From assembly GCA_964566085.1 (NCBI GenBank), contig CAZMHO010000001.1, forward strand, positions 3,887 through 67,886: DNA of 64,000 nucleotides, given 5' to 3'. This document shows, one piece after another, positions 19,544 to 60,178 of the stretch. The stretch comes from an uncultured Thermotogaceae bacterium. Its GTDB lineage: Bacteria > Thermotogota > Thermotogae > MWEM01. Each line of letters begins with the position of its first letter. The first letter of the stretch is position 1. Both the position numbers and the translations under genes were made by a program. The notes under the pieces are model-generated. The model searched no databases. It saw nothing but the letters and a program-made list of their open reading frames with translations, and was not told the DNA's origin.

Positions 19544-19554
19544 GATGCGCGTGA

Positions 19555-19563: not shown

Positions 19564-19802
19564 CATCTCCTTCTTCCGGTCAAGCGGAAGACCCTCGCGG
19601 CGGTGTCGGATTTCCTATCGTTATTGTAGGTATCCTCAGTCATTCTGGCGAACTGTATGAAAGTCAGTATCGGCCGATTTACGGCGAACTTTCCTCTCCC
19701 TTTCGCATGTCGTTTTCTTTAAAAACAACCCAAGCCCGTCGCAACAAATGACGCGTTTAGTGGTATGATATTTGTAGATCGACCGTCGCACGAGGAGGGA
19801 AT

Positions 19803-20256
19803 ATGAACAAGAATGAAGCCTTTGAGCCGTAAACCAAATACCGGAAAAAGAAGATAGGATTGGCGATATCGGCTCGCTTATTCACTGGGATATGGAAGTG
19901 AAGAAGCCGGAAAAAGGGATAGCAAATCGCGCGGAATCAAACCCCCCGATCGGTATGGAGTCAAATCGCGAGCAGACGTCTCCAGATACCGCCGAGGCGA
20001 TCGCGGCCTTAATGACTCCTGAGATCTACGTGACCCTATCTTCTCCCGAACAACGAATGATCGATCTTTACTCGCACGAAACGTTCAAAAAAAATTGATA
20101 CCGCTAGATTTGTTTAAGAGTTTCGTACAAATGACGAGTCTGGCTCAAAAATCCTGGGAACGAGCGAAGACCGCCTCCGATTTTTCGATCTTCCAACCGG
20201 ACCTTGAGGAGTTAAAGGACAAATATACGGAGATCAACGCATTGTAGGCCTCGCCG
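19803..20256 (+). pseudogene. Degraded N-terminal remnant of an M32 (Taq-type) carboxypeptidase
   Basis: Three short ORF pieces in different frames (MNKNEAFEP*, …SLIHWDMEVKKPEKGIANRAE…, …SLAQKSWERAKTASDFSIFQPDLEELKDKYTEINAL*). They resemble the start of Thermus carboxypeptidase Taq (…AWDQRTMIPKKGHEHRA… / …ESFWEEARPRDDW…). The remaining ~350 codons of the family are absent. Confidence 0.45.
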
Positions 20257-20344
20257 CCTGATGTGTCGGCGGTGTCTGCGGGTCTACGTCCGTCTTTACC
20301 GGGCGATCGATCGACGAGATCGCCCGTTTCTGTGAGGTGAAACG

Positions 20345-43389: not shown

Positions 43390-44717
43390 TCTTCGACACG
43401 GTGCAGACGGGTTGTTTCCGACGAAACTAAGCTCTTTTTGTCGCCGCTGAGCATCAGGGCCAGTCCATTCGTGCTTTTACGGTTCTGTTCCAATAGGTCA
43501 TTCGGTTTTGCGGAGGAATGATAGTCCCGGGGCTCGTCGTAGACGAACAACCCCCCTTCATAGTTCCGTAAGAGGACTTTGTTCTCCCCGATCGAAAGAA
43601 GGTATTGGGGCATCACGGGAATTTTTCCGCCACCGTAAGGCGCGTCGATCACGTAGGTGGGGACGGCTAACCCCGACGTGTGGCCCCGCAAATACTCCAT
43701 GATCTCCAAGCCCTTCGCAACGGTGGTCCGGAAGTGATAAAGTCCCTTTGAGAGGTCGCATTGGTAAATATAATAAGGGCGAACGCGATTCTTTACCAAA
43801 AGATGCACCAGTTTCTTCATAATCTCCGGGTGGTCATTGACGCCTCGTAAAAGCACCGATTGATTTCCCAGGGGAATCCCGCCGTCCGCGAGAAGGGCTA
43901 ACGCTTTTTCAGAAGCGGCGGTCATCTCATTTGGGTGGTTAAAATGCGTGTTCACCCATATGGGATGGTATTTTTTCAACATCGAAACGAGCGCTTCATC
44001 GATCCTCTGAGGCAGGACAACCGGAATGCGCGAACCAATTCGGATCATTTCGACGGAAGGCACCGCTTTGATCCTTTGGATGATTTTTTCCAAATACGCA
44101 GTGGTCAGCGTAAAGGGGTCTCCTCCGGAAAGAAGCACGTCTCGCACTTCGGAATGCTCTTTCAGATACTCAACGGCTGCATCCACGTGAGCTAAGGGTA
44201 ACGCACTATCCGTTTCCCCGGCCCTACGACGTCTGGTACAGTGCCGACAATACATGGAACACATATCGGTCAGCAGGAGCAGTACGCGGTCCGGATATCG
44301 GTGGGTGAGTCCCGGGACGGGGGAATCGATATCTTCGTGCAGCGGATCGAGCATATCTTCTTTTTGCACTTCTAGTTCGTTCAAGGTCGGTACCGCCTGG
44401 ATGCGAATCGGGTCCAACGGGTCCCGGGGATCGATTAAGGATGCGTAATAGGGGGTTATCGCCATTCTCAAGCTGTCAAGGCTGCGGGCAATGGCCATTT
44501 TCTCTGATTCCGAGAGCGGCAGCACTTTTTCCAAGGTAGCCACGTCCATTATCCGGTTCTGTATCTGCCAAGTCCAGCTGTTCCACTGTTCAGGGGTTAC
44601 GTTGTTCCAAAGTTCGATCGATTTATAATCTCTCAAAACTGAAAACCTCCTGTTTAATATTCTGTTTGATTCTCTATCTTTCGAAGGATCTCCCGCTTGA
44701 CAGACTCCGGAACCCAC
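43365..44717 (-). CDS. kamA: KamA-family radical-SAM aminomutase (lysine 2,3-aminomutase-like)
   Basis: CSMYCRHCTRRR (CxxxCxxC), a PLP-binding region, and N-terminal WNxVTPEQWNSWTWQIQNRI. The annotated 5' end overlaps coaD by 64 nt, so the true start is probably an internal TTG/GTG near 44650. Confidence 0.75.
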   Translation of the reverse strand: MGSGVCQAGDPSKDRESNRILNRRFSVLRDYKSIELWNNVTPEQWNSWTWQIQNRIMDVATLEKVLPLSESEKMAIARSLDSLRMAITPYYASLIDPRDPLDPIRIQAVPTLNELEVQKEDMLDPLHEDIDSPVPGLTHRYPDRVLLLLTDMCSMYCRHCTRRRRAGETDSALPLAHVDAAVEYLKEHSEVRDVLLSGGDPFTLTTAYLEKIIQRIKAVPSVEMIRIGSRIPVVLPQRIDEALVSMLKKYHPIWVNTHFNHPNEMTAASEKALALLADGGIPLGNQSVLLRGVNDHPEIMKKLVHLLVKNRVRPYYIYQCDLSKGLYHFRTTVAKGLEIMEYLRGHTSGLAVPTYVIDAPYGGGKIPVMPQYLLSIGENKVLLRNYEGGLFVYDEPRDYHSSAKPNDLLEQNRKSTNGLALMLSGDKKSLVSSETTRLHRVEEWKKKHSQ

Positions 44718-47463: not shown

Positions 47464-48552
47464 TCAAAAAAATATAATTTTGTTGTGATCTCCGGCAATA
47501 ATCTGCATACCGCCGGCATCAGGATAAGTCGCGCTCCATTCAAAATCGCTACCGATAATACTCTCTTTCATTCTGACCGACAGATTGCTCAGACGCACTC
47601 TGTCCATGAGTATGCTGTTTTCTAGCTCGATATGTTCCAGCGCGCAGTCATTACCGATAGCGCAATAAGGTCCGACATAGACGTTTTGAAGTCGCGCGTT
47701 GTTTCCGATCACCGTCGGCCCTTCTATTCGGCAATTTGAAAAGGCGCAGTTCTCGCCCACGGAGACGTCTTCCCCTAAAAAGCTATGCTCAAGTTCTATC
47801 TGACCTGCTTTTTCTATGGGTTTGGAGGAGAGAATCCGGCGATTTGCGTCCAAAAGATCCGGCACTTTCCCGGTATCCTTCCACCAACCCTTTAGGAAAT
47901 GATAGTTCACGACATGCCCTTCCGTTATCAGCATGGATATGGCGTCGGTAATCTCGTATTCACCGCGCCAAGAGGGTTTTAACCGGCGGATGACATCAAA
48001 GACGTGCGAATCAAAAAAATACAAACCCAGCACGGCGTTGCGGCTTTCCGGTTCTTTCGGTTTCTCCACGAGGCGAACGATCCGCTCGTTTTGAAGCGTC
48101 GCGACTCCGAAAGCCCGCGGGTCTTCAACTTCCTTCAACAAGAGGGTAGCTTGCGCCTGCGTGCTTAAAAAAAGCGATTTCATCGTTTCGAGATTTTCCT
48201 CCAGCAGATTGTCGCCCAAGTATAGTAGAAACTTTTCACCTGCTGCCCAACCCTCGCAAAGGCTCAGGGCGTGGGCTATCCCTTTTGCGTTTTCCTGTAA
48301 AACATAGGTGATGCGCACTCCAAAGGCGCTCCCGTCTTTCAGCGTCTGTTCAAAAATATTCCGATTATAATGGTTGACGACCAAGCAAACCTCTTTGATG
48401 CCACCGCTTTTAACCGCGTCGATGACATAGGCGATGAGGATTCGGTTCGCCAGCGGGAGGAGCTGCTTCGGGCGACTAAAGGTGAACGGTTTCAACCGGG
48501 TGCCTTCCCCGCCACACAGAATGATCGCTTTCGTAAAACCCACTCCTTTCAC
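47464..48552 (-). CDS. Sugar-phosphate nucleotidyltransferase with a C-terminal left-handed beta-helix (bifunctional GlmU/RmlA-like)
   Basis: AIILCGGEGTRLKPFT…KQLLP (nucleotidyltransferase G-loop) and hexapeptide repeats at the C-terminus. Confidence 0.7.
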   Translation of the reverse strand: MKGVGFTKAIILCGGEGTRLKPFTFSRPKQLLPLANRILIAYVIDAVKSGGIKEVCLVVNHYNRNIFEQTLKDGSAFGVRITYVLQENAKGIAHALSLCEGWAAGEKFLLYLGDNLLEENLETMKSLFLSTQAQATLLLKEVEDPRAFGVATLQNERIVRLVEKPKEPESRNAVLGLYFFDSHVFDVIRRLKPSWRGEYEITDAISMLITEGHVVNYHFLKGWWKDTGKVPDLLDANRRILSSKPIEKAGQIELEHSFLGEDVSVGENCAFSNCRIEGPTVIGNNARLQNVYVGPYCAIGNDCALEHIELENSILMDRVRLSNLSVRMKESIIGSDFEWSATYPDAGGMQIIAGDHNKIIFF

Positions 48553-48567
48553 GAACGGCTGAATCGA

Positions 48568-49599
48568 TTATACCAATTCCGCGATTTTTTCGGCCAATCG
48601 ATAGGAAGGAAGGACATAATCGGAGTATCCTTCTTGGACCACGGACTTTGGCATACCGTACACGACACAGGTTTCTTCCGATTCGGCCACGACGACGCCT
48701 TTATAATGCTTAATTTTAAAGGACCCTTTTGTACCGTCTCTTCCCATACCGGTCATAACCACGCCGATCGTTTTCTCTTTGTAGAGCTCCGCCGCGTGCT
48801 CGAAGGTAAAGTCGGCCGCGGGTCTGACGCCGTTTATTTTCGGGCTTTGATCCAAAAAAACTCGGATTTCGCCAGATTCTGCGCGAAGCCCGAGGTGGTA
48901 GTCTCCCGGGGCAACGTAAACGGTTCCCTCTTTGATAACTTCTCCCGCTTTCGCCTCTTTAACCGTAATCTCGGAGATGCGATCCAATCGTTGGGCCAAT
49001 GACGCGGTGAATCCCGCCGGCATATGCTGCACGAGCAGCACCGGAGCCGGTAGGTTTTTTGGCAAGGCGGGAATCACTTGGTCCAACGACTTCGGCCCTC
49101 CGGTGGAAGAGGCGACGACGACTATCTTCCCTCTGGCCGTGAAGGATCGGGTTGATTTCTTAGCGACAGAAAGCGGGCGATACTGTATTCTTGACGGGTC
49201 TATCAACGCTGCCTCCCGAATTTTTGAAAGCAGGGCGTTGCCCATAATCCTAAAGTTTGTCGAGATCGAACCGGACGGTTTCGGGACAAAATCGACGGCG
49301 CCGTTCTGCAAGGCCTCGATGGTTATATTCGCGCCTTCTTGAGTCAGGCTGCTGACCATGATCACTCTCGTCTGTATTTTTTTCGTAATCAGTTTTAACG
49401 CTTCCAACCCGTTAAGTTTGGGCATCTCCACATCCATCGTGATCACGTCCGGTTTCAGTTGGACCGCTTTTTCGATGGCTTCCATTCCGTCACGGGCTTG
49501 GCTGATGATCTCAATGTCTCCTTGGCCTTCAAGGATATCCTTGATAACCATACGCATGAAAGCCGAATCATCACAGACGAGAACGCGAATTTTTCCCAT
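48568..49599 (-). CDS. cheB: Chemotaxis response regulator protein-glutamate methylesterase
   Basis: A REC domain (VLVCDDSAFMR…DVEMPKLNG) plus the CheB methylesterase catalytic region (…ASTGGP…HMPAGFT). Confidence 0.85.
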   Translation of the reverse strand: MGKIRVLVCDDSAFMRMVIKDILEGQGDIEIISQARDGMEAIEKAVQLKPDVITMDVEMPKLNGLEALKLITKKIQTRVIMVSSLTQEGANITIEALQNGAVDFVPKPSGSISTNFRIMGNALLSKIREAALIDPSRIQYRPLSVAKKSTRSFTARGKIVVVASSTGGPKSLDQVIPALPKNLPAPVLLVQHMPAGFTASLAQRLDRISEITVKEAKAGEVIKEGTVYVAPGDYHLGLRAESGEIRVFLDQSPKINGVRPAADFTFEHAAELYKEKTIGVVMTGMGRDGTKGSFKIKHYKGVVVAESEETCVVYGMPKSVVQEGYSDYVLPSYRLAEKIAELV

Positions 49600-50038
49600 G
49601 AGTCATCCCCTTTCCAATTAGGAGTAGTAGCGTAACCAGAAATAAGAAAAAGGCGAATAAGCCGATTAGGTCGGGAAGTTGAAACAAGTGCTTACCGAAG
49701 ATAACCAACCCGACGGAAACGGCGAATACGGCGGTCACTAGAACGATTCCCGCTGATAAATCCTTCGCTTTCTTTACTTCATCATGAAAAAACGGGTAAA
49801 ATAAATCCAATAAACTCTCGATCAAAGAGTTCAACATTTCGAAAACAATCACGAGAAAAACCGAGAACAACACCCACAGGGTCTCAAAGGTGCTGAGCGG
49901 TAGAATAAACGTCAAAAATAAAACCAAACCTCCCACAAAAAAATCGATCCGGAGGTTTTGCTGCTTCCTTAAGGCTTGAATAATACCGCTTAAGGCGTAA
50001 TAAAAACTCGAACCCAGTTTTATAAACGCGTTTTTCAT
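49571..50038 (-). CDS. dgkA: Diacylglycerol/undecaprenol kinase DgkA family
   Basis: Three TM helices, and E…N motifs VFEMLNSLIESLLD. Confidence 0.7.
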   Translation of the reverse strand: MKNAFIKLGSSFYYALSGIIQALRKQQNLRIDFFVGGLVLFLTFILPLSTFETLWVLFSVFLVIVFEMLNSLIESLLDLFYPFFHDEVKKAKDLSAGIVLVTAVFAVSVGLVIFGKHLFQLPDLIGLFAFFLFLVTLLLLIGKGMTHGKNSRSRL

Positions 50039-50101
50039 GGTTGTCTTACGGGTTTCTACGTGAAAAAGCTGTCGGGGACACCCGCCTGTATGCTACTCCG
50101 A

Positions 50102-50710
50102 TCATTCAAAGGACACTTTTGTGAATAGCTTTTCGTCCTTCAAAGAATACTCTTTGTCGCTTAGGGTTATACCGAACTCAATGGCTTGCATATTCATCTC
50201 GTAGTACTTTTTTGATACTTCCTCAGAGACGGTCTTTTGGAGGTTTTCTTTCGAAATGATCCCGGTGATCTTATAGATTAACCCTAAACCCGCGACGTTG
50301 GACACGACCGGCGTCCCGAACTTCTCGACGCACATCTGGGTGATCGGCAACGCAATCACCTTTCTGGTTAACCTTTTGATGAAATTCGGTATCTTTTTTA
50401 TCGTTGTCGTGTCACAGATTAATACGCCGTTTGGTTTGAGCAGATTTATGAAACTGTCGAGCGGTTTCTGATCCATCATATAAATCATGTTGAACGTATA
50501 GGCTTTTGGAAAATCAATCGGATCCTGCGCGAATAAAACGTCGCTGTAGGCGACTCCTCCGCGTACCTGCGCCCCGTAATGCTGTGATTGCACGACCCAT
50601 TTGCGGTCGTATGTCAGCGTCTTCGCCAACATCAACCCCATCTTGATATTGCCTTGCCCGCCGATTCCGCCGATACGGACCGATAAAGGTTTCGATTCAA
50701 TAGTATCCAT
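50102..50710 (-). CDS. 2-oxoacid:ferredoxin oxidoreductase gamma subunit
   Basis: IRIGGIGGQGNIKMGLMLAKT is the POR/KOR gamma (PF01558) signature. Confidence 0.8.
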   Translation of the reverse strand: MDTIESKPLSVRIGGIGGQGNIKMGLMLAKTLTYDRKWVVQSQHYGAQVRGGVAYSDVLFAQDPIDFPKAYTFNMIYMMDQKPLDSFINLLKPNGVLICDTTTIKKIPNFIKRLTRKVIALPITQMCVEKFGTPVVSNVAGLGLIYKITGIISKENLQKTVSEEVSKKYYEMNMQAIEFGITLSDKEYSLKDEKLFTKVSFE

Positions 50711-50729
50711 ATCTATTCACCGCCATCTC

Positions 50730-51617
50730 TTATGATTCTTGTGTGGACATCGCTTTTTGGACGATCTTTTGATATTCCGAGATATAGCCCGGTTTCTTTT
50801 GGTTGATGAACTCTCCGATGATGATCCGTCCCGGATTATTGCGTTGGGCTTCCTGTAACCGGACGATCGGGTCATTGAGGATGTTCTCTTCTTCGTTTTT
50901 TCCATTTTCGGAAACTTTCGGTTTCGGCAGATTGAAAGCCTTCTCTTTAAAGTATAGCATCATTTGAGGAGCGGTCCCGATACCGGCGTAACGGCCAAGA
51001 TAAGTCGGACACTGGGTTACCACTTCGATGAAAGAAAACCCCTCGTTTTCCAGGCCGTGTTTGATATAGGTTTGGGTCGGTAAAAAATGATAGGCTGTCG
51101 AGCGCGCGACATAAGAGGCGCCTGCGGCGATCGCCAGACGGGAAAGATCGAAAGAGTTTTCCATATTGCCGTAGGGTGAGGTCGTCGCATAGGATTGCTG
51201 GGGAGTGGTGGGCGAATATTGCCCCCCCGTCATCCCGTAGATGTTGTTATTGAAGCAAACCACTGTCAGATCAATATTCCGACGGGCCGCGTGAATGAAA
51301 TGATTGCCCCCGATAGCGGCAAGATCGCCATCTCCGGTGATGACGATCACTTTGATCTCCGGACGGGCCAGCTTAACACCCGATGCGAAAGCGACCGCTC
51401 TTCCGTGGAGCGTATGCAACGTGTTGAAGTTTAAATACCCTGTCGCTCGCGAAGAACAACCTATTCCGGATACCACGGCTACTTTATTCGGATCCAATTG
51501 AAGCTCGTCAATTGCGCCCACAATCGCTTTTAAAGCGATGCCGTTCCCACAACCGGGGCACCAAACATGAGGCAAGCGATCCGTACGCAAGTACTTGAGG
51601 TATTTTTCTAAGGACAT
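50730..51617 (-). CDS. 2-oxoacid:ferredoxin oxidoreductase beta subunit (TPP-binding)
   Basis: WCPGCGNG (Cys cluster) and GDGD…IGGNH (TPP-Mg motif); RBS GGAGGAAAAAT. Confidence 0.85.
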   Translation of the reverse strand: MSLEKYLKYLRTDRLPHVWCPGCGNGIALKAIVGAIDELQLDPNKVAVVSGIGCSSRATGYLNFNTLHTLHGRAVAFASGVKLARPEIKVIVITGDGDLAAIGGNHFIHAARRNIDLTVVCFNNNIYGMTGGQYSPTTPQQSYATTSPYGNMENSFDLSRLAIAAGASYVARSTAYHFLPTQTYIKHGLENEGFSFIEVVTQCPTYLGRYAGIGTAPQMMLYFKEKAFNLPKPKVSENGKNEEENILNDPIVRLQEAQRNNPGRIIIGEFINQKKPGYISEYQKIVQKAMSTQES

Positions 51618-51755
51618 ATTTTTCCTCCGGCTACTTTGATATTTATTAAAAAATTATACCACGAACGATGAAGAAAACAATCAATCACAATTTCGCGTTT
51701 TTTATGATATTATAGCCTGGGCGCTTGATTATACGTAAAATGGGGGAGTACGCGA

Positions 51756-53147
51756 ATGACATACGATCTAATCGTAATCGGTTCGGGACCGGCAGGGTAT
51801 GTGGGGGCGATTCGCGCCAAACAGCTGGGTCTGCAAACCGCTATCGTTGAAATGGATAAGCCGGGCGGCGTCTGCCTTAACGTCGGGTGCATTCCGACGA
51901 AAGCCCTTATTCATAAAGCCAAAGAGTTCCGGGCGGTCGAAAGCCTAAAAAAGCTTGGGATCCAGGTGGATATGGCTCAATTCGATTTTTCGGGAGTAAC
52001 CCAGTACGCGAAAACGGTATCGTCCAAACTTTCCAAAAGCGTCGGGTTCTTATTGAAAAAGGCCGGCGTGGACGTGATCTTGGGGACTGCCAAATTCTTG
52101 TCCCCGACAACCCTTGAAGTGGTCAGCGGGGAGGAAAAAGAAATCCTCGCGGGCAAGCATTTCCTTATCGCGACGGGTTCGAGGCCAAAAAACCTTCCCG
52201 ATCTTTCGATCGATGAAGAGAGTATTCTCTCTTCAACCGGCGCCTTATTTTTGAAGCGTCTACCGAAGGCGATCGCCATCATCGGAGCCGGCGCGATCGG
52301 GGTGGAGTTTGCCTATATCTACCGTTCCTTCGGTTCCGAGGTCTATGTGATCGAAGTGATGCCAAGAATCCTGCCTCTGGAAGACAGCGAAGCGGTTGAA
52401 ATCCTCACGAAACAGTATATTAAACAGGGCATTCGGGTGCTCACCTCGACGAAAGTTTTGTCGGCGGAGAAGGGGGCCGAAGGTGTCCGACTTCGTATCC
52501 AGAAATCGGATGGCGATCCAGAATCACTGATGGTCGACAAAGTCTTGTTGTCTGTCGGAAGAACGATCAATACGGACCATCTGGGTTTGGAGTCCATCCC
52601 GTTAACAACCGAGAGAGGCTTTCTGAGCGTCAACGCGCGCTATCAAACCGCCATGCCGCACATTTATGCGGCGGGAGACGTCATCCCGACGCCTTTGTTG
52701 GCACACGTCGCCTCAGAAGAGGCGATAATAGCCGTCGAGTCGATTGCGAACCCCCTGAAGGAACCGGAAGACTTCTCCGGTCTCATACCCTCTTGTATCT
52801 ATTCGGAACCGGAATTGGCGAGCTTCGGAGAGCAGGAAGCGCATTTGGTGAACACGAACCGGCTATTCAAAAAATCGGTCTTTCCTTACCGCGGGATCGG
52901 AAAATCAGTCGCGACAGACCAACCGGAAGGTTTCATCAAGTTGCTGAGCGATCCGGAAACCGAACGGGTTTTAGGCGTTACCATTGTTGGCGCGCAAGCT
53001 ACCGAACTGATCCACGAATGCATGTTGCTAAAAAAAACGGGGCAATCGATTCGGACGCTCGCGCACATGATTCACGCCCACCCCACGTTTTCCGAAGGGT
53101 TGATGGAGGTGGCAAAATTAGCGCTTGGAGAGTCGATCAATCTATAG
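51756..53147 (+). CDS. lpdA: Dihydrolipoyl dehydrogenase
   Basis: GSGPAGY…GGVCLNVGCIPTK (redox-active disulfide) and the C-terminal HAHPTFSE dimer-interface His. Confidence 0.9.
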   Translation: MTYDLIVIGSGPAGYVGAIRAKQLGLQTAIVEMDKPGGVCLNVGCIPTKALIHKAKEFRAVESLKKLGIQVDMAQFDFSGVTQYAKTVSSKLSKSVGFLLKKAGVDVILGTAKFLSPTTLEVVSGEEKEILAGKHFLIATGSRPKNLPDLSIDEESILSSTGALFLKRLPKAIAIIGAGAIGVEFAYIYRSFGSEVYVIEVMPRILPLEDSEAVEILTKQYIKQGIRVLTSTKVLSAEKGAEGVRLRIQKSDGDPESLMVDKVLLSVGRTINTDHLGLESIPLTTERGFLSVNARYQTAMPHIYAAGDVIPTPLLAHVASEEAIIAVESIANPLKEPEDFSGLIPSCIYSEPELASFGEQEAHLVNTNRLFKKSVFPYRGIGKSVATDQPEGFIKLLSDPETERVLGVTIVGAQATELIHECMLLKKTGQSIRTLAHMIHAHPTFSEGLMEVAKLALGESINL

Positions 53148-53164: not shown

Positions 53165-53548
53165 ATGCGTTTCTGGAGCCTTTTGCTTGTATTCTTTCTC
53201 TTGGCCGTTTTTGCCGGGGCATGGACAACGGACCTTAAAGAGATAAAAACGCGATACACTCAAGAACAGATTGTCGAGTCGTTTGAAAAGGCCCGGCGGC
53301 ACGAATGGCTTGAAGAGTATCAGGAGAAAGACAACGCAATCTACCTTCTTACGAGCAAATTCAAGTACCGGACCCGGCTTCTTGACGACCAAACCCTTGT
53401 CTTCGACCAAGTTCAAAGCCGTTACGACTATGATATGCAATTCCCTTTTTGGACGATCATACTCTTGTTCATCATATCGGGGGCGGTTTTGATACTCATT
53501 TTCTTCCTGCCTTCTGATTTCAAGTTTAGAAAGAGAAAATCGCGATGA
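53165..53548 (+). CDS. Small bitopic membrane protein (127 aa)
   Basis: An N-terminal signal/anchor (MRFWSLLLVFFLLAVFAGA), a C-terminal TM, and a basic tail (FRKRKSR). Lies directly upstream of the export-protein gene. Confidence 0.35.
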   Translation: MRFWSLLLVFFLLAVFAGAWTTDLKEIKTRYTQEQIVESFEKARRHEWLEEYQEKDNAIYLLTSKFKYRTRLLDDQTLVFDQVQSRYDYDMQFPFWTIILLFIISGAVLILIFFLPSDFKFRKRKSR

Positions 53549-53606
53549 ATCAGCAGTAAAACCGTAAGACAATCGAAAGCGATTCGTGATAAAAGAGGAG
53601 AACCTT

Positions 53607-56429
53607 ATGAATAAGAGGCTTTTGGTTAGCATGTGTTTCTTCGCCATCTTTCTTTCGATTTCTGTAGGTCAGTATGCGCTCAAGCCTGGAGACCAGATCG
53701 AGGTGTACAATTATACCTACCCGGAACTCAATCAACCGGCTTTGGTGGGAAAGGATGGCTTTATCCAGCTAAAGCTGATCGGCTCTGTGAAAGCGGAGGG
53801 TATGAGCTTGGAAGAGCTGGCTGCGTTCACGAAGAGCAAACTGACGCCGTTCGCGCCGGAATCCCGGGTGACGATCCTATTGACGCAAATCTACCCGGTC
53901 AAGGCCTATATTATCGGCGAAGTGAACCAAGCGACGATTATCGATTTGACATATGAAGAGAACCCGACCCTTCTGCAGGCATTGAGTTTTTGCGGCGGAG
54001 TGAAGACGTCGGCCGATTTGAAAAATATCCTCCTTCGGCACGAGGATGGCTCCTTCGATACCGTCGATATTTCCGGAACGCTCGAATTCGGTCTTTGCGA
54101 GGACATAATCGCGATTCGCCCCGGGGATGTCATCGTGGTTCCCAGAAAATACGAACGTCGGGTTTATGTGTTCGGAAGTCTGGAGCAATCGGGAGTCATC
54201 TATTTTGAAGAAAAGGAACCGATGGTTTTGGAGGTTCTGTTATCCAAGGTTAAGTACGATCTGCGCACTTCGGAACCCACGATCTCTTTGATTCGCGACG
54301 GATACGAAACGCCCTTAACGCTTGAGGGTACCCGTTCCGTCGTAAAAAAAACCGAACTCCGAAGCAACGATATTTTGCTGATCCGTAAACTGCAGCCGAA
54401 GTATTTGTACGTGACCGGTCTATCGACCGCGAGCCGTATTGATTTCGAAAGAGAGGAAGAGATGACGCTGCAAACGTTGTTCGGAAAATTGGGGTTTGCG
54501 CCGCTCTCCGCTCTGGAGATTCGCATCACTCCGGCAAATGGGCAAGCAAGGACGTTATCTATCAACCGTTCGATACCGGTTTATCGATTCGGATCGGGAG
54601 ATATCGTCGAGTTTCCCCCTCAGAACTACGTTTACGTGAGTGGAAACGTAAGCAAAACAGGAAAGATAGATTTCTCCTACTCAGAACCGTTTACCTTGGA
54701 AACGCTTCTGGCTCTAGTGGGAGTGGGCGAAGAAGAAAGCGTCCAACTGACGGTGATCAATCCTGACGGCCGTCGTTTTCTATACCAATATCCCGAACGG
54801 AGAGAGACGCTCACACCCCTCGAACGAGGCGCTTTCGTTCAGTTCCCGTACAAACGGTACGTCTTTCTGGCCGGTTCGATTTCCGAAGGCAACGAGCGGC
54901 AACTGTATTTTCCGAACGAAGAAGAGATGACATTAAAACGCGCCTTAGCCAAAGCAAGCATCGATCTGTCCCAAAACAACTACGGCGTCACGGTGATCCG
55001 CAGTCAGGACCAATACCCGTTCGATCTGAAAAGCGCCCTTCTCTCCGAGGGGAATTTTTTGTTGGAAACGGGCGATATCCTGTTTTTTGAGAAAGAGACC
55101 GATCGGTACGTTCATCTCGTCGTTTCCGAAGGCGATAGCCGAAAGTTGCATTTCGCGCCCGAAGACCCTTTAGACCTATTCACCGTTCTCGTCAAATATG
55201 AGAAAACGGGGGAACTGACCGGTGATCAGATCAAGATCATCGATCCGTCTGGCCGCATTTTTTTGAGTTCGGTCAAAGCGGTTTTGAATCAGGAGGAAAA
55301 CTACTCCCTGTCTCCCAAAAGCCTTGTCGTAATCAACGCTAACGAACGGCGCGTTTTTGTCTTAGGAAACGTGGAGCATAGCGGAGAGATACTCTTCGGT
55401 CAAGACGAACCCTTTACCTTGACCACGCTCGTCGCCAAATGCAACCCCATCCTGAACGAAAAAACCGAGAACATCCTGGTTAAGCGTCGCGCCGGCGTAA
55501 CTGTTTTGGATCTTCAGGATGTCTTGGACGTTTCAACGGTATTCGCGTTGGAAAAAGACGCGGTCGTGTACTTTAAACCGTACGAACCAAAAGTCGTGAC
55601 GATCTTCGGACAGGTAAAAATCCCCGGACTTTTATCCTTCGGCAAACTTGAACCGCTGAATCTGATGACCGTTTTGTCTAAGGCCGGAGGGTTGCTTTCC
55701 GATGCCAGCCAACGCATCAAAGTGGTCGGGGCTGACGGCAAAAGCACTATCTATAACCTGATTTCTGAACCGAATCCGGAAAGGCTCTCGATCGCTCCCG
55801 GCAGTTATGTTGTGGTAGAGAACAATCAGGGGCAGTATATCGCCATTTTGGGAGACGTGAAGAACCCGGGGCTTCATTACCTAAAAAAAGACGAACTCTC
55901 GCTATTGGAATTGCTGAGCGCGCAAGGGGGGGTCAGCGATTGGACCCTAAACACGACATTGGAACTTACCCGCTCGTCGGGAGAGAAAGAGCTCATAAAT
56001 ATCGATCTGGACCCCTCGTCGCTAAACAAGACGAAGGTACGGCCGGGAGATACGGTTTTCGTATACCCGAGCAGCCGCTTGAAAGTCTACGTGTTCGGAG
56101 CCGTGGTGAATCCGGGCATCGTCCCCTATCGATCGAAGATGACGCTATTAGAGTCTTTGCTCTATTGTAGAGGGCCTTCTTCTTCCGCATACATGAAGAA
56201 AATTATGGTCTTCCCCGGGGGTGTCGACGCGAATCCGATCCTGTTGGACTATTCCGGATTCAGGAACGAGCGAGGCGTCGCAGACTACTTCCTGGAGCCG
56301 GGAGACGTCGTTTACGTGCCCCAAAACGCATTAGTGGAGATTAAAGATGTCGCCGGATTTCTGGGTACCATGCTGACGCTCGTGAATTCTGGGTTCACGT
56401 TAATGGATAAGCTGCAAAATTTACCGTAA
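53607..56429 (+). CDS. Wza/KpsD-like polysaccharide export protein with about 10 tandem SLBB (beta-grasp) repeats
   Basis: An N-terminal signal peptide plus a Poly_export (PES) motif LKPGDQIEV…DGFIQLKLIGSVKAEG. Repeated about 85-aa units of the form [RK]xYVxGxVxxxGxxxFxxxEPxTLxxLLxxxGG recur about 10 times. The ATG at 53607 has a strong RBS AGAGGAG; the track ORF begins at a GTG inside that RBS. Confidence 0.7.
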   Translation: MNKRLLVSMCFFAIFLSISVGQYALKPGDQIEVYNYTYPELNQPALVGKDGFIQLKLIGSVKAEGMSLEELAAFTKSKLTPFAPESRVTILLTQIYPVKAYIIGEVNQATIIDLTYEENPTLLQALSFCGGVKTSADLKNILLRHEDGSFDTVDISGTLEFGLCEDIIAIRPGDVIVVPRKYERRVYVFGSLEQSGVIYFEEKEPMVLEVLLSKVKYDLRTSEPTISLIRDGYETPLTLEGTRSVVKKTELRSNDILLIRKLQPKYLYVTGLSTASRIDFEREEEMTLQTLFGKLGFAPLSALEIRITPANGQARTLSINRSIPVYRFGSGDIVEFPPQNYVYVSGNVSKTGKIDFSYSEPFTLETLLALVGVGEEESVQLTVINPDGRRFLYQYPERRETLTPLERGAFVQFPYKRYVFLAGSISEGNERQLYFPNEEEMTLKRALAKASIDLSQNNYGVTVIRSQDQYPFDLKSALLSEGNFLLETGDILFFEKETDRYVHLVVSEGDSRKLHFAPEDPLDLFTVLVKYEKTGELTGDQIKIIDPSGRIFLSSVKAVLNQEENYSLSPKSLVVINANERRVFVLGNVEHSGEILFGQDEPFTLTTLVAKCNPILNEKTENILVKRRAGVTVLDLQDVLDVSTVFALEKDAVVYFKPYEPKVVTIFGQVKIPGLLSFGKLEPLNLMTVLSKAGGLLSDASQRIKVVGADGKSTIYNLISEPNPERLSIAPGSYVVVENNQGQYIAILGDVKNPGLHYLKKDELSLLELLSAQGGVSDWTLNTTLELTRSSGEKELINIDLDPSSLNKTKVRPGDTVFVYPSSRLKVYVFGAVVNPGIVPYRSKMTLLESLLYCRGPSSSAYMKKIMVFPGGVDANPILLDYSGFRNERGVADYFLEPGDVVYVPQNALVEIKDVAGFLGTMLTLVNSGFTLMDKLQNLP

Positions 56430-56453
56430 AAGCCGAAAAAATGGGGGGATTTC

Positions 56454-58622
56454 GTGCCTTCGTCCGAGCGCGATGAGATCTACGAAAAAGAACCGAACGA
56501 GTTAACGATAAACGATCTGTTCCGCATGTTCAAAAGGCGGATTGTGTGGTTTTTACTCGTCGTGGTCCTTACCGTTATCGCCACGATCCTCTATGCCTTC
56601 ATCTCTCCGCGGGTCTACGAGTCGAGCGTGACGATAAAACTGTCGGCCGCCTCTTCTTCCGGCATCTCTGGTTTCTTGCAGGATCTTCCTTTTGGAATCG
56701 GCGGATCTTCGAGCGGTGGCAGCATTTTAACGGAGATAGAGATGATCACGAGCAAAGGCAACATCGAAAAGGTGATCCGAAATATCGGTTTGTTGGATAT
56801 TCTGATACCGGCGGAGAAAAGAAAACCTGGAGAAGCGGAGCAGGCAATGTTCTCGCGCGCCGTAAGCGCCTTGGCGGAACAGATCAGCGTGAACCCGGTT
56901 AAGAACACCAATATCGTCAAGATTACCGTTGCCTTATCAGAAGGGGATCTCGCAGCGCGTATCGCCAATGAGTTGGCTTCGGTATACAACGAAAGTTTGT
57001 ACGATATCAACAAAACGCAAGCGAATGAAAAGCTGTCGTTCATTGAGAAGCAGCTGCCTGTGAGTAAAGCCGCTCTTGACTTCTCTATACGGAAGGTGAG
57101 AGAGTATAAGGAAGCGAAACAGATCTTTCTGATATCCGAAGAAGCGAAGGCTTTGTTAGAGGTAATCGCGGACTTCGACAAGCAGTTGAATGCAAAAAAA
57201 ATGGAATTGCGAACGACTCAGGCAGGGATTGCGGCGATCCGGGAAAAACTCTCCGCAACAAACGAAAAATTGATCTCCTCGGAAACGATCACGATCAATC
57301 CGCTTGTCAGCGAATTGCGGAGCAAGTTAACGAATCTGAATATCGAATTGGCCGCTTTGGAGAAACTCTATCCGGCCACCGATCCTCGAGTTCTACAAAA
57401 AAGGAAGTCGATCGAAGAGACTCAGAAAGAGCTATCGAAACAAGTCGTCAATATTGTCACGTCTCAGCAAAAAACAGACAACCCGATTTACGCGACGCTT
57501 ATGGGAGAGTTGGTCATGAAAGAGATCGACTATCAACTCTACGCCGCGACGATTGAAGCTATTGAAAATACCCGCAAGGAATACGACCAAAAAATGAGAC
57601 AGCTCCCCGCTCTCGAGCAGGAACTCACCGAGCTGCTCCGAGAGGAGAGCATCAACGAGCAGGTCTATGTCGCCCTCTACAAGAGTTATATCGACGCCCA
57701 GATTTCCGAAGCCGGGATCGTCAACCAAACCTATATCGTGGACGCAGCGGAACCCCCTTTGAATGCCGCGAAACCTCAAAAAAAACTCATCGTGGCGATA
57801 GGCGGGGTTTTGGGAGTATTCCTGGGCATCCTGTTCGTATTCGTTCTCGAATACCTTGAAAAACGGATTATGGATACCGAGGAGCTCGCGAAGATGACGG
57901 GGGACGCGGTCCCGATCTTCGGCTTTTTCCCGAAAACCAAAACCGGCCTTCTTCCGATTAATCCCCAGAATCCCGATCGCCTCCTCTCCGAAGCGGCTGA
58001 GACAGCCTATACGCGATTCCATTTAAGAAAACATGAACGCCCTTCGAAAGTTATCGCGATTACGAGTTCCGAGAGCAACACCGGGAGTTCTACACTTGCC
58101 TTCTACCTTGCGCAAACAATTGCTCGAAGCAGGGAACGCGTTCTCCTGATCGACGGGGCGCTACGATATACCAACCTCACGAAACGCATCGGATTGCCGA
58201 ATCACCAGACCGGCTTTTCTCAAGCCATTTCGGAGGGCTTCTCCGAACGGGTTCCTGTGGTTTCGCTACAACCTTATCTGGACTTTCTGCCGGCCGGAAA
58301 GCACGACGCGCATCCGTTGGCCCTGTTCCGAGGAAAACGGTTTGAAGAGTGGATAACCGCCATGGCGAAAGAATACGATCGAATTCTCATCGATACGCCG
58401 GCGATGAACCGGGATGTGGATACGTCCATGCTTATCGCGAGAACGGAAGGCGTTTTTTTGGTGGTCACGATTGGAAAAACCGGGAAACGCGCTTTTAGAA
58501 AGGCGCTGAACGATATTGGTTACGCGCAAATCCCTTTGTTGGGCCTTTTGGTCAATAAATGCCAAATCGGTAAAGATTTCTCCCTTCGAAAAAATGAAAA
58601 TCGATCCGAGATTCAAGCCTAA
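56454..58622 (+). CDS. Wzc/GumC-like polysaccharide co-polymerase with a degenerate BY-kinase-like ATPase domain
   Basis: A Wzz N-terminal TM, a long coiled-coil periplasmic region, a second TM (LIVAIGGVLGVFLGILFVFVL), then a CapB-like domain. The Walker A position reads ITSSESNTGSST (no Lys) and there is no C-terminal Tyr cluster. Confidence 0.65.
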   Translation: MPSSERDEIYEKEPNELTINDLFRMFKRRIVWFLLVVVLTVIATILYAFISPRVYESSVTIKLSAASSSGISGFLQDLPFGIGGSSSGGSILTEIEMITSKGNIEKVIRNIGLLDILIPAEKRKPGEAEQAMFSRAVSALAEQISVNPVKNTNIVKITVALSEGDLAARIANELASVYNESLYDINKTQANEKLSFIEKQLPVSKAALDFSIRKVREYKEAKQIFLISEEAKALLEVIADFDKQLNAKKMELRTTQAGIAAIREKLSATNEKLISSETITINPLVSELRSKLTNLNIELAALEKLYPATDPRVLQKRKSIEETQKELSKQVVNIVTSQQKTDNPIYATLMGELVMKEIDYQLYAATIEAIENTRKEYDQKMRQLPALEQELTELLREESINEQVYVALYKSYIDAQISEAGIVNQTYIVDAAEPPLNAAKPQKKLIVAIGGVLGVFLGILFVFVLEYLEKRIMDTEELAKMTGDAVPIFGFFPKTKTGLLPINPQNPDRLLSEAAETAYTRFHLRKHERPSKVIAITSSESNTGSSTLAFYLAQTIARSRERVLLIDGALRYTNLTKRIGLPNHQTGFSQAISEGFSERVPVVSLQPYLDFLPAGKHDAHPLALFRGKRFEEWITAMAKEYDRILIDTPAMNRDVDTSMLIARTEGVFLVVTIGKTGKRAFRKALNDIGYAQIPLLGLLVNKCQIGKDFSLRKNENRSEIQA

Positions 58623-58631
58623 AGGTTTCCG

Positions 58632-60146
58632 ATGAAAGCGATCATCCTTGACGGTTATGTGGACGAACCGGCGCTGTTTGGAGTCCCTCCGTTCGTTTCC
58701 ACGTACGTTCGATACGCCTGGGGCGCGTATCGTCATTTCGGAGTAGATCCAGAGTATTGGACAATCGACCAGATCAGGAAAGAGAACTCATGGGACGACC
58801 TCAATCAGGCCGATCATTTGGTGATCATCGGAGGCGTCAGCGTTCCAGGGAAGTACGCGGGAGGCGCGCCGCTTTCTTTCAACGAGCTCTCTAAGATCGC
58901 CGAAGGCTGCCCCGCTCCGCTGAAGATTCTATTCGGTGCTTTCACCTACCGTACTGAATCCGAAAAACGCAAAAACGAAAGGAAATCCGGAAAGTCCCGG
59001 ACAACTCAGAATAACCCTCTGAGAGCTATCGAATGCATCGTATCAGGAAACCTCGAGACCTATCTGTACTATCTTCTATCGGGTAAGAACCCGCCCGAGG
59101 ATATCGGAAAAGAGACGGATAAAACCGAACTGTGCGCCTTGGCCGGCGCGGGGTTAGTCAACCGGCATCCGAACTATCCGAATCTCATCTGCGAGCTCGA
59201 AGTGTCTTCCGGTTGCGAACGACGGTCTCATTGCAGTTTTTGTAGCGAACCCCTCTTTCATAAGCGCTTCTCGTCGCGAGACCCGGAAGCGTTGTTATCG
59301 GAAGCGGCTGCTTTGGGAGAACATGGGGTGAAACACTTTCGTTTGGGTCGTACAGCCAATATAAGCGCCTATGGCGAACGCGGCGACGGTCCCGATCCCG
59401 TGGCCCTGCGCAGAGTTTATCAAGGGTTTCGAGAACGGGTGCCCGGTCTGCGCACCTTGCATACTGACAACGCCAATCCCCAATACATCGCCGAGCACCC
59501 GACCGAGTCCGCCAAGATCCTCGAGACGATTGCGGAGTATAACACGTCCGGCGACATCCTGTCTTTCGGTGTCGAGTCTTTCGACGAAACCGTCATCCGT
59601 TCCAATAACCTTGGTACGCGGGTGGAAACGATCTATCAAGCCATCAAATTGGTCAACGAGATCGGGGGGCTCCGAAAAGAAGGGGTTCCAGCGCTCCTTC
59701 CGGGAATTAACCTCATCGCCGGATTGATCGGCGAGACGAAAAGTACTTTTTCGAAGAACCTCGAAGCGTTGAAGACGATCGTGGGAAACGGATGGCTCTT
59801 ACGCCGCATCAACCTCCGGCAGGTGATGGTTTTTCCAGAGACCCCTTTATGGATTTACCGTCAGTCCCATTACCTCCCTTTTCATCACTTGGAGTTCCAG
59901 CATTTCAAAGAGAAGGTCCGGAAGGAAATCGACCGCCCGATGCTTCAACAGGTCTTCCCGGCCGGAACGGTCATTCGGGACGTCGTGATGGAGTACCACG
60001 AAGGCAATAACACTTTCGGAAGGCCCTTGTGGACCTACGGGATCTTGATCGGTATCCGGGAAAGGCTTCCTATCGGCGAAAAGGTATCCGTTATCGTTAC
60101 AGAACACGGCTATCGATCGCTCACAGGCCAAAAGATTCCCGCTTAA
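58632..60146 (+). CDS. Radical-SAM-like Fe-S enzyme with an N-terminal Rossmann/B12-binding-like domain and a non-canonical Cys motif
   Basis: SSGCERRSHCSFCSE (C-x5-C-x2-C, not CxxxCxxC), with a TIM-barrel-length body. The N-terminal ~110 aa (KAIILDGYVDEP…LVIIGGVS) resemble flavodoxin/B12-binding folds. Confidence 0.55.
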   Translation: MKAIILDGYVDEPALFGVPPFVSTYVRYAWGAYRHFGVDPEYWTIDQIRKENSWDDLNQADHLVIIGGVSVPGKYAGGAPLSFNELSKIAEGCPAPLKILFGAFTYRTESEKRKNERKSGKSRTTQNNPLRAIECIVSGNLETYLYYLLSGKNPPEDIGKETDKTELCALAGAGLVNRHPNYPNLICELEVSSGCERRSHCSFCSEPLFHKRFSSRDPEALLSEAAALGEHGVKHFRLGRTANISAYGERGDGPDPVALRRVYQGFRERVPGLRTLHTDNANPQYIAEHPTESAKILETIAEYNTSGDILSFGVESFDETVIRSNNLGTRVETIYQAIKLVNEIGGLRKEGVPALLPGINLIAGLIGETKSTFSKNLEALKTIVGNGWLLRRINLRQVMVFPETPLWIYRQSHYLPFHHLEFQHFKEKVRKEIDRPMLQQVFPAGTVIRDVVMEYHEGNNTFGRPLWTYGILIGIRERLPIGEKVSVIVTEHGYRSLTGQKIPA

Positions 60147-60178
60147 GGCGCTTAAGCGAAGACGCTGAGCATTTTTGC

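Follow-up and report, generated by a model that had tools for sequence, protein, structure and literature searches.

A Probable Two-Gene Polysaccharide Export Core with a Ten-SLBB Exporter and a Kinase-Dead Co-Polymerase in a Thermotogota Metagenome Contig

Closest Described Systems

The exporter Wza of Escherichia coli contains 2 SLBB-type domains. The Wza-Wzc pair of group 1 capsule and colanic acid (PDB 2J58, 7NHR, 9R60-69) combines an OPX protein built of Poly_export, SLBB and a C-terminal helix with a PCP-2a protein that has two TM segments, a Wzz/GNVR domain and a fused P-loop domain; their genes are adjacent and co-directional. The pair analysed here is alike in these respects, its C-terminal helix being a predicted one.

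Saidi et al. catalogued the class-1 OPX proteins, defined as Poly_export-SLBB(1-14)-Wza_C (Saidi et al. 2022, PMC9603273). Most of them are lipoproteins of ~380 aa, and Thermotogota go unmentioned in that paper. Co-polymerases with a defective kinase domain are also on record. GumC of Xanthomonas, a xanthan protein, has been described as a 'pseudo-BY-kinase' (PMC9800525): it carries a fused cytoplasmic BY-kinase-like domain devoid of the Y-cluster, and a phosphorylation-independent mode was proposed for it. In EcpK/EpsV of Myxococcus xanthus and HfsB/HfsA of Caulobacter, the pseudokinase is a separate polypeptide that keeps the BY-kinase fold without catalytic residues and phosphorylatable tyrosines, and a scaffold role in PCP oligomerisation was proposed (PMC12004946). 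A BY pseudokinase is a BY-kinase fold lacking catalytic residues and/or phosphorylatable tyrosines (PMC12004946, PMC9800525). For the last gene of the locus, the closest described proteins are MiaB, MtaB and RimO (PDB 7MJX, 9A6D, 4JC0), which have the same full-length three-domain fold.

The window, i.e., the whole stretch of 64,000 nucleotides that was analysed, belongs to a Thermotogota metagenome contig and holds four co-directional + strand ORFs of interest. We consider it quite probable that they represent a two-gene OPX/PCP polysaccharide export core with neighbours that are merely adjacent. The locus would then be a Thermotogota example for two catalogued classes, the multi-SLBB class-1 OPX exporters and the kinase-dead GumC/EcpK-like co-polymerases.

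The Locus and Its Limits

A sequence-only reading had presented the four genes as an envelope-export module lying between a standalone lpdA and pxpA. The ORF coordinates were re-found, and the domain calls were upheld by Pfam and NCBIfam. Of the domains which that reading had named for searching, Poly_export, SLBB, Wzz, AAA_31/CbiA and Radical_SAM were matched in Pfam, AAA_31/CbiA weakly. The features of the locus are as follows.

51684..51713, + strand: sigma-70-like promoter match (consensus match only), ahead of lpdA
51756..53147, + strand: lpdA, dihydrolipoyl dehydrogenase (TIGR01350, 497 bits)
53165..53548, + strand: small envelope protein of 127 aa with an N-terminal signal/anchor and a C-terminal TM segment
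53607..56429, + strand: predicted class-1 OPX (Wza-like) exporter of 940 aa (Pfam, NCBIfam and PDB Wza matches)
56454..58622, + strand: PCP-2a (Wzc/GumC-like) co-polymerase of 722 aa (Wzz, GNVR, TM1 and TM2)
58632..60146, + strand: cytoplasmic radical-SAM enzyme of 504 aa (Radical_SAM; MiaB/RimO-like three-domain fold)
60138..60160, no strand: ten-pair palindrome (pattern match only)

All four genes turned out to be under purifying selection, with dN/dS of 0.07-0.11 against a relative of 82% identity. They are therefore real genes. The spacing had been given as 37, 24 and 9 nt. The last two values stand by the coordinates, and the 37 nt belongs to a 947-aa version of the exporter with a GTG start at 53586. 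The ATG start of the 940-aa protein at 53607 is preceded by AAGAGGAG and leaves a gap of 58 nt to the small gene.

lpdA stops 17 nt short of the small gene, and the gene calls of relatives make the two overlap by 4 nt; where the block begins on the left is therefore an arbitrary choice. lpdA is probably co-transcribed, and it has no functional assignment to the exporter. Upstream of the block, the + strand has a single sigma-70-like promoter match. As this lies ahead of lpdA, a transcription unit may start there and run through the small, OPX, PCP and radical-SAM (rSAM) genes. At the other end, the palindrome covers the last part of the rSAM ORF plus the short stretch that separates it from the convergent pxpA, and it is a possible bidirectional terminator. 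Neither promoter-like sites (9 found vs. 7.9 expected) nor terminator-like sites (12 vs. 14.4) stand out above the shuffled expectation, so they give only weak hints on the operon limits. Between wzc and the rSAM gene there is no terminator-like site in the 9-nt gap, which makes co-transcription of these two likely. Co-transcription can reflect function.

The Pfam scan covered 46 of the 62 window ORFs of at least 80 aa, the remainder being mostly shorter ORFs. It agrees with the sequence-only reading that no glycosyltransferase, flippase or polymerase is present within the block; the nearest glycosyltransferase found among the scanned window ORFs is a GT2 at 709-1788. A 751-aa ORF with no Pfam match was considered as a hidden Wzy and rejected, since its translation reads like a soluble protein, secreted or lipoprotein-like, and shows no multi-TM pattern. 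The view that this is not a textbook Wza/Wzb/Wzc arrangement is borne out. Unlike E. coli Wza-Wzc, the pair has no linked Wzx, Wzy or glycosyltransferase genes, and its host is a member of the Thermotogota with a toga envelope. GumB/GumC differ as well: their genes are part of a complete gum operon for biosynthesis, and the window pair is detached from biosynthesis genes. If the pair is an export core, its cargo polymer, with the glycosyltransferase, Wzx and Wzy genes for it, would be specified outside the window.

The Exporter

The 940-aa protein had been called Wza-like, and the profile and structure matches confirm this. Pfam finds Poly_export together with SLBB_2 (129 bits) and SLBB (84 bits), and the PDB Wza structures are matched with E = 6e-15 over aa 18-224. 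Three segments follow the signal region.

53670..53879, + strand: Poly_export (PES) domain, aa 22-91 (PF02563, 55.9 bits, cut-off 28)
53907..56312, + strand: ten tandem SLBB (beta-grasp) repeats, aa 101-902, with a period of ~80 aa
56340..56417, + strand: C-terminal helix, aa 912-937, after PGDVVYVP (AF2 model)

A self-trained profile detects the SLBB repeats as 10 matches with E from 1e-10 to 1e-17. The AF2 model of the protein consists of a signal helix, 10 repeated beta-grasp strand/helix units and a C-terminal helix. All long OPX homologues end alike, with PGDxIYVP plus a hydrophobic helix of about 30 aa, and by analogy helix 912-937 is a candidate outer-membrane-spanning, Wza_C-like segment. 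At the N-terminus, the hydrophobic segment of aa 3-25 qualifies as a secretion signal. Direct reading of the N-terminus reveals no canonical lipobox, which gives it an SPI-type look.

With Poly_export near the N-terminus, SLBB repeats behind it and a secretion signal, the protein can be assigned to the class-1 OPX exporters as far as sequence goes. It appears to have the Poly_export-SLBB(n)-C-terminal helix order with n = 10, and multi-SLBB proteins of this kind are not new, the published catalogue of class-1 OPX proteins extending from 1 to 14 SLBB domains (PMC9603273). In contrast to most members of the class, it reaches 940 aa and has an SPI-type signal peptide. It also differs from Wza in the number of SLBB repeats and in a signal peptide without a clear lipobox. 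We assume that Poly_export and the ten repeats would form a long periplasmic tube, and that the C-terminal helices of the oligomer would build a helical barrel across the outer 'toga' membrane, like that of Wza.

The Co-Polymerase and Its Kinase-Dead Domain

The 722-aa protein is Wzc-like, as had been proposed. Pfam matches Wzz (45 bits) and GNVR (56 bits), E. coli Wzc is found with E = 1e-31, and two TM segments (aa 25-55 and 442-470) flank the periplasmic Wzz/GNVR domain. The P-loop part is matched weakly by AAA_31/CbiA/BcsQ (AAA_31 27.8 bits, cut-off 27) and scores 90 bits with TIGR01007, under the cut-off of 108. The PDB kinase domains of Wzc, CapB, VpsO and BceF match it with E = 1e-12 to 1e-16. 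Two TM segments, a periplasmic Wzz/GNVR domain and a fused cytoplasmic P-loop domain make this a PCP-2a protein. Thermotogota homologues bear the NCBI name 'GumC family protein'. The cytoplasmic domain shows the following.

57954..58622, + strand: BY-pseudokinase domain, aa 501-722, without a C-terminal tyrosine cluster
58062..58094, + strand: degenerate Walker A, TSSESNTGSST, in which Ser545 replaces the catalytic Lys
58443..58466, + strand: degenerate Walker B, TEGVFLVV, in which Glu665 replaces the conserved Asp

The absence of the Walker A lysine had been noticed from the letters alone, and the alignment places S545 at the position of K540 of E. coli Wzc. Walker A' reads ILIDTPA, with the Asp retained and PP changed to PA. 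The last 40 residues contain one tyrosine vs. 6-10 in Thermotogota outgroups, and no phosphotyrosine phosphatase (Wzb or CpsB) is encoded among the scanned ORFs of the window. Walker A Lys, Walker B Asp, tyrosine cluster and cognate phosphatase, the marks of an active BY-kinase, are all missing, which sets the protein apart from E. coli Wzc. Its motifs suggest a fused BY-pseudokinase of a kind already described for GumC, EcpK/EpsV and HfsB/HfsA. Kinase-dead BY-kinase-like domains have been published for GumC, EcpK and HfsB (PMC9800525, PMC12004946) and are not new. In contrast to EcpK/EpsV and HfsB/HfsA, the domain is fused here, in the PCP-2a format. A further difference is that the loss can be followed inside a single phylum, starting from kinase-intact, CpsB-linked relatives.

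The outgroup loci L089 and L090 and the homologues P0161-P0168 have GEGKT/S and DG intact, and, P0163 apart, all of them carry 6-10 consecutive tyrosines at the C-terminus. GEGKT is present in L093 as well, whose sequence is cut off before the C-terminus. A CpsB (CpsB_CapC) gene adjoins the kinase-intact homologues in L089, L090/91, L093 and L095, and it is absent next to the PCP gene in the window clade. In the window, L081 and L084, Walker A and B are G-S-S-T and T-E-G, and the Tyr tail is missing. Sister lineages with intact Walker A, tyrosine cluster and adjacent CpsB thus stand, in one phylum, beside a clade that lost all three. This offers a clean natural comparison of how PCP-2 proteins work without phosphorylation cycling, of modest, evolutionary value.

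One could suppose that the OPX/PCP pair is a decaying remnant which lost its kinase motifs and phosphatase through disuse. The loss of Walker A Lys, Walker B Asp, tyrosine cluster and CpsB would fit this, as would the lack of Wzx, Wzy and glycosyltransferase genes nearby. However, every complete locus of the clade (window, L081/L082, L084) has the two genes intact and at full length, and dN/dS is 0.07 for the OPX gene and 0.085 for the PCP gene. The kinase-dead domain has a dN/dS of 0.13 and is therefore retained under selection. The G-S-S-T substitutions are kept down to 64% identity and hence represent a stable, selected state. Decay is an extremely improbable explanation, and as a pseudogene idea it is rejected by the dN/dS values.

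Another alternative is that the degenerate P-loop still binds or hydrolyses nucleotide, or that the protein is trans-phosphorylated by another BY-kinase encoded elsewhere in the genome, so that regulation would still be phosphorylation- or nucleotide-dependent. The domain does keep its glycine-rich loop, Ser/Thr546-547 and the Walker A' Asp (ILIDTPA), and Thermotogota genomes can carry several PCP/BY-kinase loci. Yet both residues essential to every characterised BY-kinase, the Lys and the Asp, have been substituted, the single tyrosine near the C-terminus is no cluster that could serve as acceptor, and the phosphatase gene is absent from the locus. In the case of EcpK, dependence on active BY-kinases has been argued against (PMC12004946). 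On balance, we regard this alternative as unlikely.

In the export core that we favour, the periplasmic Wzz/GNVR domain would dock onto the OPX protein. Because Walker A Lys, Walker B Asp, Tyr tail and CpsB have all been lost and the BY-kinase fold has been kept, we infer that the dead domain most likely acts as a phosphorylation-independent scaffold holding the PCP oligomer together, in analogy to the described pseudokinases.

The Radical-SAM Enzyme

The fourth gene was rightly recognised as encoding a radical-SAM enzyme: PF04055 is matched with 44 bits (cut-off 29.5), and both the cluster motif and the fold agree.

59214..59243, + strand: radical-SAM cluster motif CERRSHCSFC (CX5CX2C) with C195, C201 and C204

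These three are the only invariant cysteines among 63 family members, and no conserved cysteine precedes residue 195 in the 63 sequences, i.e., an N-terminal auxiliary-cluster triad is lacking. The predicted structure (pLDDT 90.9) comprises a Rossmann-like N-domain, a radical-SAM barrel and a TRAM-like beta-barrel, with no TM segment. MiaB, MtaB and RimO are its best full-length PDB matches (TM 0.6-0.73) and also the best PDB matches by sequence. In most relatives a helix-hairpin-helix (HhH) tail is added, which MiaB, MtaB and RimO do not have. The enzyme differs from these three also in having CX5CX2C and not CX3CX2C and in missing their conserved N-terminal Cys triad.

Identity as a methylthiotransferase was rejected on account of the missing triad and of scores far below every NCBIfam methylthiotransferase cut-off (37 bits with TIGR00089, cut-off 251). 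A B12-binding domain had also been named for searching. There is no PF02310 match, and TIGR04013 gives 44 bits against a cut-off of 251, so a B12-binding radical-SAM identity was rejected, too.

Proteins of this family occur across Thermotogota and, at ~40% identity, in Halobacteria, Methanosarcinales and Methanomicrobia, archaea which have no outer membrane. The family appears to be an uncharacterised, MiaB-like one common to Thermotogota and Euryarchaeota. The probable substrate of the enzyme is RNA, or else some other nucleic acid or a protein. The literature on COG1031 and on radical SAM with helix-hairpin-helix in Thermotoga yielded nothing on function. As a by-product of this analysis, a conserved MiaB-like family with no auxiliary-cluster cysteines and no known substrate may be the more useful result.

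Genomic Neighbourhoods

Among 175 fetched related loci, the rSAM gene lies beside wzc only in the window's own clade (L081-85, L096). There, the rSAM proteins are at least 65% identical and the whole 20-kb region is collinear, from an upstream CheB gene to genes beyond pxpA. The four-gene arrangement appears in just one of 80 metagenome loci, L096, which belongs to the same clade (77% identity), and it is absent from the other 160-plus rSAM loci. A tblastn search of 80 genome loci, ~67 of them archaeal, returned zero homologues of the small, OPX, PCP, lpd or pxpA genes within 10 kb. The genes around rSAM relatives of 53-55% and 48% identity are altogether different ones, and on one 1.71-Mb contig the rSAM gene and the closest Wzc homologue are ~355 kb apart.

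In 13 Thermotogales loci, an operon of ECF sigma factor, small TM protein, secreted protein and rSAM is conserved. Six of the 13 have a DAGK-PORgamma-PORbeta block 4-6 kb upstream, and so does the window. The window has no ECF-sigma genes, and its small protein does not match the anti-sigma-like or secreted proteins of that operon. We propose that the rSAM gene would have stayed at its ancestral chromosomal position, and that the lpdA-small-OPX-PCP genes would have replaced the ECF-sigma genes which precede it in other Thermotogota.

The sequence-only reading had seen the four genes as one undescribed export and modification system, in which the rSAM enzyme would modify the polysaccharide, a glycoconjugate or a lipid carrier and the small protein would be an accessory. 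The tight wzc-rSAM spacing of 9 nt, the absence of internal terminator-like sites and the gene order kept in L081-85 and L096 are consistent with this. So is Thermosipho ferrireducens (L089), where ~4 kb separate the rSAM operon from an OPX gene, which makes a second case of proximity, independent of the first. Among the archaeal loci, 20 have next to the rSAM gene one for an LPG_synthase_TM membrane protein, which is fused to GT2 in Haloarcula and followed by a sugar nucleotidyltransferase gene in Methanosarcinales. These neighbours hint at a possible envelope or glycoconjugate link for the rSAM family. None of the archaeal neighbours, an order-specific mix of TRAM protein, Hsp20, LPG_synthase_TM, GT2 fusion and nucleotidyltransferase, names a pathway.

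Against a single system, the order is kept only where the entire region is collinear, which speaks for genome collinearity and not for selected linkage, and it is missing from all other Thermotogota and from all archaeal loci. The rSAM protein is soluble, cytoplasmic and MiaB/RimO/TRAM-like, i.e., of an RNA-modification-type fold, with a nucleic-acid-binding HhH tail in most relatives, and its family is highly conserved in monoderm archaea that have no OPX/PCP machinery. The reading had itself named non-synteny in related genomes as evidence against it, and for the rSAM and small genes this is largely what was found, since they are not syntenic with the pair beyond close relatives. A single four-gene system is therefore very improbable. 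We judge that the rSAM gene is not part of the export machinery; it looks like an unrelated housekeeping-type neighbour of the two-gene core.

A narrower proposal would be that the enzyme was recruited into an lpdA-small-OPX-PCP-rSAM unit and acts on the exported glycoconjugate or on a lipid carrier, making up an undescribed phosphorylation-independent toga-envelope system. This is a long shot. If it were true, the T. ferrireducens proximity, the ECF-sigma linkage in Thermotogales and the archaeal GT2-LPG_synthase_TM genes would be first traces of a broader envelope role of the rSAM family.

The small protein fits no better as a member of a four-gene module. A relative of 35% identity (L094) is not beside an OPX/PCP pair, which also counts against a single system. 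The gene has a dN/dS of 0.09. Pfam gives only LapA_dom, at the cut-off, over the C-terminal TM segment. The protein is envelope-anchored and may be an accessory, and its link to the exporter is not demonstrable. It has hydrophobic segments at aa 1-25 and 90-121, a soluble part of ~70 aa between them and a basic tail. The family is narrow, and its 8 representative clusters share this topology.

The locus and its surroundings

The real feature of this locus is the pair formed by a Wza-like exporter (OPX) and a Wzc-like co-polymerase (PCP) with a pseudokinase domain. Four co-directional genes do lie between lpdA and pxpA, where the sequence-only reading had suggested a four-gene export-and-modification module, and its domain calls for the four proteins were borne out by Pfam and NCBIfam:

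51756-53147, plus strand: lpdA, left neighbour of the four genes
53165-53548, plus strand: small protein, 127 aa
53607-56429, plus strand: OPX, 940 aa
56454-58622, plus strand: PCP (wzc gene), 722 aa
58632-60146, plus strand: radical-SAM gene (rSAM), 504 aa
60179-60982, minus strand: pxpA, right neighbour of the four genes

The 37-nt gap reported between the small and OPX genes holds only for a 947-aa product with a GTG start; the ATG start of the 940-aa protein at 53607, preceded by AAGAGGAG, leaves 58 nt. Where the four-gene block starts on the left is arbitrary: only 17 nt separate lpdA from the small gene, and in relatives the two gene calls share 4 nt. Purifying selection acts on the four genes and on lpdA (dN/dS 0.07-0.11 against an 82%-identity relative). 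By its protein homologues the window belongs to an uncultured lineage of Thermotogota, with 'Thermotogota bacterium' GCA_035388265.1 as the nearest named relative.

Of the 62 ORFs in the window with 80 aa or more, the Pfam scan covered 46, the remainder being mostly shorter ORFs. It revealed ordinary chromosomal housekeeping genes, including Rnf, flagellar rod proteins, MreB, several tRNA synthetases, PmbA/TldD, FTHFS, CheB, DAGK and subunits of 2-oxoacid:ferredoxin oxidoreductase. The scan detected neither Wzx nor Wzy nor an initiating transferase, and only three of the scanned genes are sugar-related:

709-1788, plus strand: GT2 glycosyltransferase
10670-11695, minus strand: CsaB-like polysaccharide pyruvyl transferase (PF04230)
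47464-48552, minus strand: NTP_transferase with LbH domain

The first two, the only glycan-building genes in the scanned set, are >40 kb from the OPX/PCP pair. Directly downstream of the third is a 751-aa ORF (45167-47422, minus strand) whose N-terminus resembles a signal or lipoprotein sequence and which has no Pfam match at E <= 1e-5.

The exporter

The OPX is indeed Wza-like: it contains Poly_export and SLBB/SLBB_2 domains (Pfam/NCBIfam), and its first 200 residues match solved Wza structures with E = 6e-15. With a repeat profile built from this protein and its homologues, 10 SLBB units were delineated (aa 101-902); in the AlphaFold model (pLDDT 74), ten beta-grasp units lie between a signal helix and a terminal helix (aa 912-937). 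All long OPX homologues close with "PGDxIYVP" and, after it, ~30 aa of hydrophobic helix. The architecture is that of the class-1 OPX, defined by Saidi et al. 2022 (PMC9603273) as Poly_export-SLBB(1-14)-Wza_C, the terminal helix being the candidate Wza_C segment. It is large yet not unusual, since long OPX, of 830-1590 aa, are the norm among the Thermotogota homologues recovered.

Small exporter islands apart from glycosyltransferase genes seem common across Thermotogota. Loci L090/L091 of a related lineage carry, at 17836-20959, an OPX of 1589 aa that includes a GfcC domain, the phosphatase gene cpsB and wzc, followed by a gene for a 924-aa Wzy_C-domain protein; this cluster is flanked by housekeeping genes.

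The co-polymerase

The Wzc-like identity of the PCP was confirmed as well. Pfam/NCBIfam matches comprise Wzz, GNVR and, weakly, an AAA_31/CbiA/BcsQ P-loop, and the E-value against E. coli Wzc is 1e-31. The layout is that of PCP-2a: two TM segments (aa 25-55 and 442-470) flank Wzz/GNVR, and the P-loop domain comes after them. The Walker A lysine had been called absent, and S545 does stand at the position of Wzc K540; the degeneration extends beyond that residue.

Table. BY-kinase features of the window clade and of outgroup Thermotogota (L089, L090, L093 and P0161-P0168 for the motifs).
Feature; window clade; outgroups
Walker A; TSSESNTG-S545-ST; GEGKT/S
Walker B; TEG, Glu665 for Asp; DG
C-terminal tail; 1 tyrosine in last 40 residues; runs of 6-10 tyrosines (exceptions: P0163, without a run, and L093, sequence cut off)
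Phosphatase; none in locus; PHP-type CpsB adjacent in L089, L090/91, L093 and L095

A CpsB gene was found neither among the scanned ORFs of the window nor among the called genes of the clade relatives' loci. This degenerate state is fixed in the clade's three other members, with identities as low as 64%, and the dead kinase domain is still constrained (dN/dS 0.13). The coherent reading is that the domain is a fused BY-pseudokinase, phospho-cycling and phosphatase having been lost together. Proteins of this kind have been described before: the Ghose review (PMC9800525) applies the term "pseudo-BY-kinase" to GumC. Both parts of the pair are of known kinds, and the pair offers a tidy within-phylum contrast to its kinase-intact, CpsB-linked relatives.

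Degenerate P-loops also occur in other Thermotogota PCPs, namely P0160 (732 aa, 42% identity to the window PCP), where TGTST has threonine for the Walker A lysine, and P0170 of Thermosipho (670 aa; GTFEEKD). BY-kinase catalysis may have been lost more than once in the phylum.

The small protein

The 127-aa protein opens with a signal or anchor segment, followed by ~70 soluble residues and a TM anchor at the C-terminus; its only Pfam/NCBIfam match, LapA_dom, is at cut-off and covers the C-terminal TM segment. With 8 representative clusters in a set of 1.8 billion representative proteins, the family is tiny. The gene was not found at L093, the locus of the 38% OPX relative, and a 35% relative is encoded away from any exporter, with an unknown gene on one side and a C1 peptidase gene on the other. 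An accessory role is conceivable, with nothing in its favour.

The radical-SAM gene

The fourth protein matches Radical_SAM, and no B12-binding domain was found in it (Pfam/NCBIfam). It is a member of an uncharacterised family found throughout Thermotogota, with relatives of ~40% identity in Halobacteria, Methanosarcinales and Methanomicrobia. The protein is soluble, and its model (pLDDT 90.9) shows a radical-SAM barrel between a Rossmann-like N-domain and a TRAM-like C-terminal beta-barrel, with MiaB, MtaB and RimO as best full-length structural matches (TM scores 0.6-0.73). It shares this three-domain fold with MiaB/RimO but lacks their auxiliary-cluster cysteines. A methylthiotransferase was ruled out: only C195, C201 and C204 (CX5CX2C) are invariant in the family, and the family HMM scores fall far under the cut-offs. 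Most members have a C-terminal HhH tail, which is absent from the window clade. Our best guess is that the enzyme modifies RNA or another macromolecule.

That all four genes form one system with a radical-SAM modification step now appears very improbable. No homologue of small, OPX, PCP, lpdA or pxpA lies within 10 kb of rSAM in any of 80 genome loci, and only one of 80 metagenome loci, L096 (77% identity, same clade), has the window arrangement. The genes around rSAM are unrelated to those of the window in relatives at 53-55% and 48% identity, and on one 1.71-Mb contig ~355 kb separate rSAM from the closest Wzc homologue. In the loci that keep the order (L081-85, L096), collinearity extends over the whole stretch that starts with the CheB gene upstream of DAGK and reaches past pxpA, so the conserved order reflects genome collinearity and not selected linkage.

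Some observations favour the four-gene system. Co-transcription of wzc and rSAM is likely, judging by the 9-nt gap and the lack of a terminator-like site in it. The only plus-strand promoter-like site lies ahead of lpdA, in a consensus scan whose counts, 9 promoter-like vs. 7.9 and 12 terminator-like vs. 14.4, are no higher than expected from shuffling; a palindrome occupies 60138-60160. In Thermosipho ferrireducens some 4 kb, occupied by GGDEF, HD and other genes, separate the rSAM operon from an OPX gene. Furthermore, LPG_synthase_TM membrane proteins neighbour rSAM in 20 archaeal loci: convergent and followed by a sugar nucleotidyltransferase in Methanosarcinales (10-11 loci; L025, L038, L040 and others), and fused to GT2 directly downstream in Haloarcula and relatives (9 loci; L015, L016, L022 and others). 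However, 14 haloarchaeal loci (L017-L021 and others) have instead a stand-alone TRAM-domain protein downstream, which hints at an RNA link; in 18 loci of Halobacteria, a divergent Hsp20 gene lies upstream. All of these are weak and conflicting hints.

A conserved set, counted in 13 Thermotogales loci and noted at L003-L008, L089, L092, L100-L103, L106 and L107, consists of an ECF sigma factor, an anti-sigma-like single-TM protein of ~100-116 aa, a secreted protein of ~240-284 aa without Pfam match and, last, rSAM; the genes ahead of rSAM lie ~2 kb upstream of the rSAM match. This suggests an envelope-stress-type control of rSAM in Thermotogales. In 6 of the 13, a DAGK-PORgamma-PORbeta block lies 4-6 kb upstream of rSAM, as in the window (49571-51617, minus strand, rSAM being on the plus strand). 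This macro-synteny, with rSAM 4-7 kb past the block, is common to the window clade and Pseudothermotoga/Thermotoga-type loci (L006, L092, L100, L103, L106, L107), whereas the genes between block and rSAM are entirely different. Given the shared position, and as no ECF genes of the set were found in the window, rSAM is the ancestral resident, and lpdA, small, OPX and PCP have taken the place of the genes formerly ahead of it.

A second radical-SAM gene of the window (43365-44717, minus strand) is of the lysine-2,3-aminomutase type (Radical_SAM and LAM_C) and unrelated to the gene at 58632-60146.
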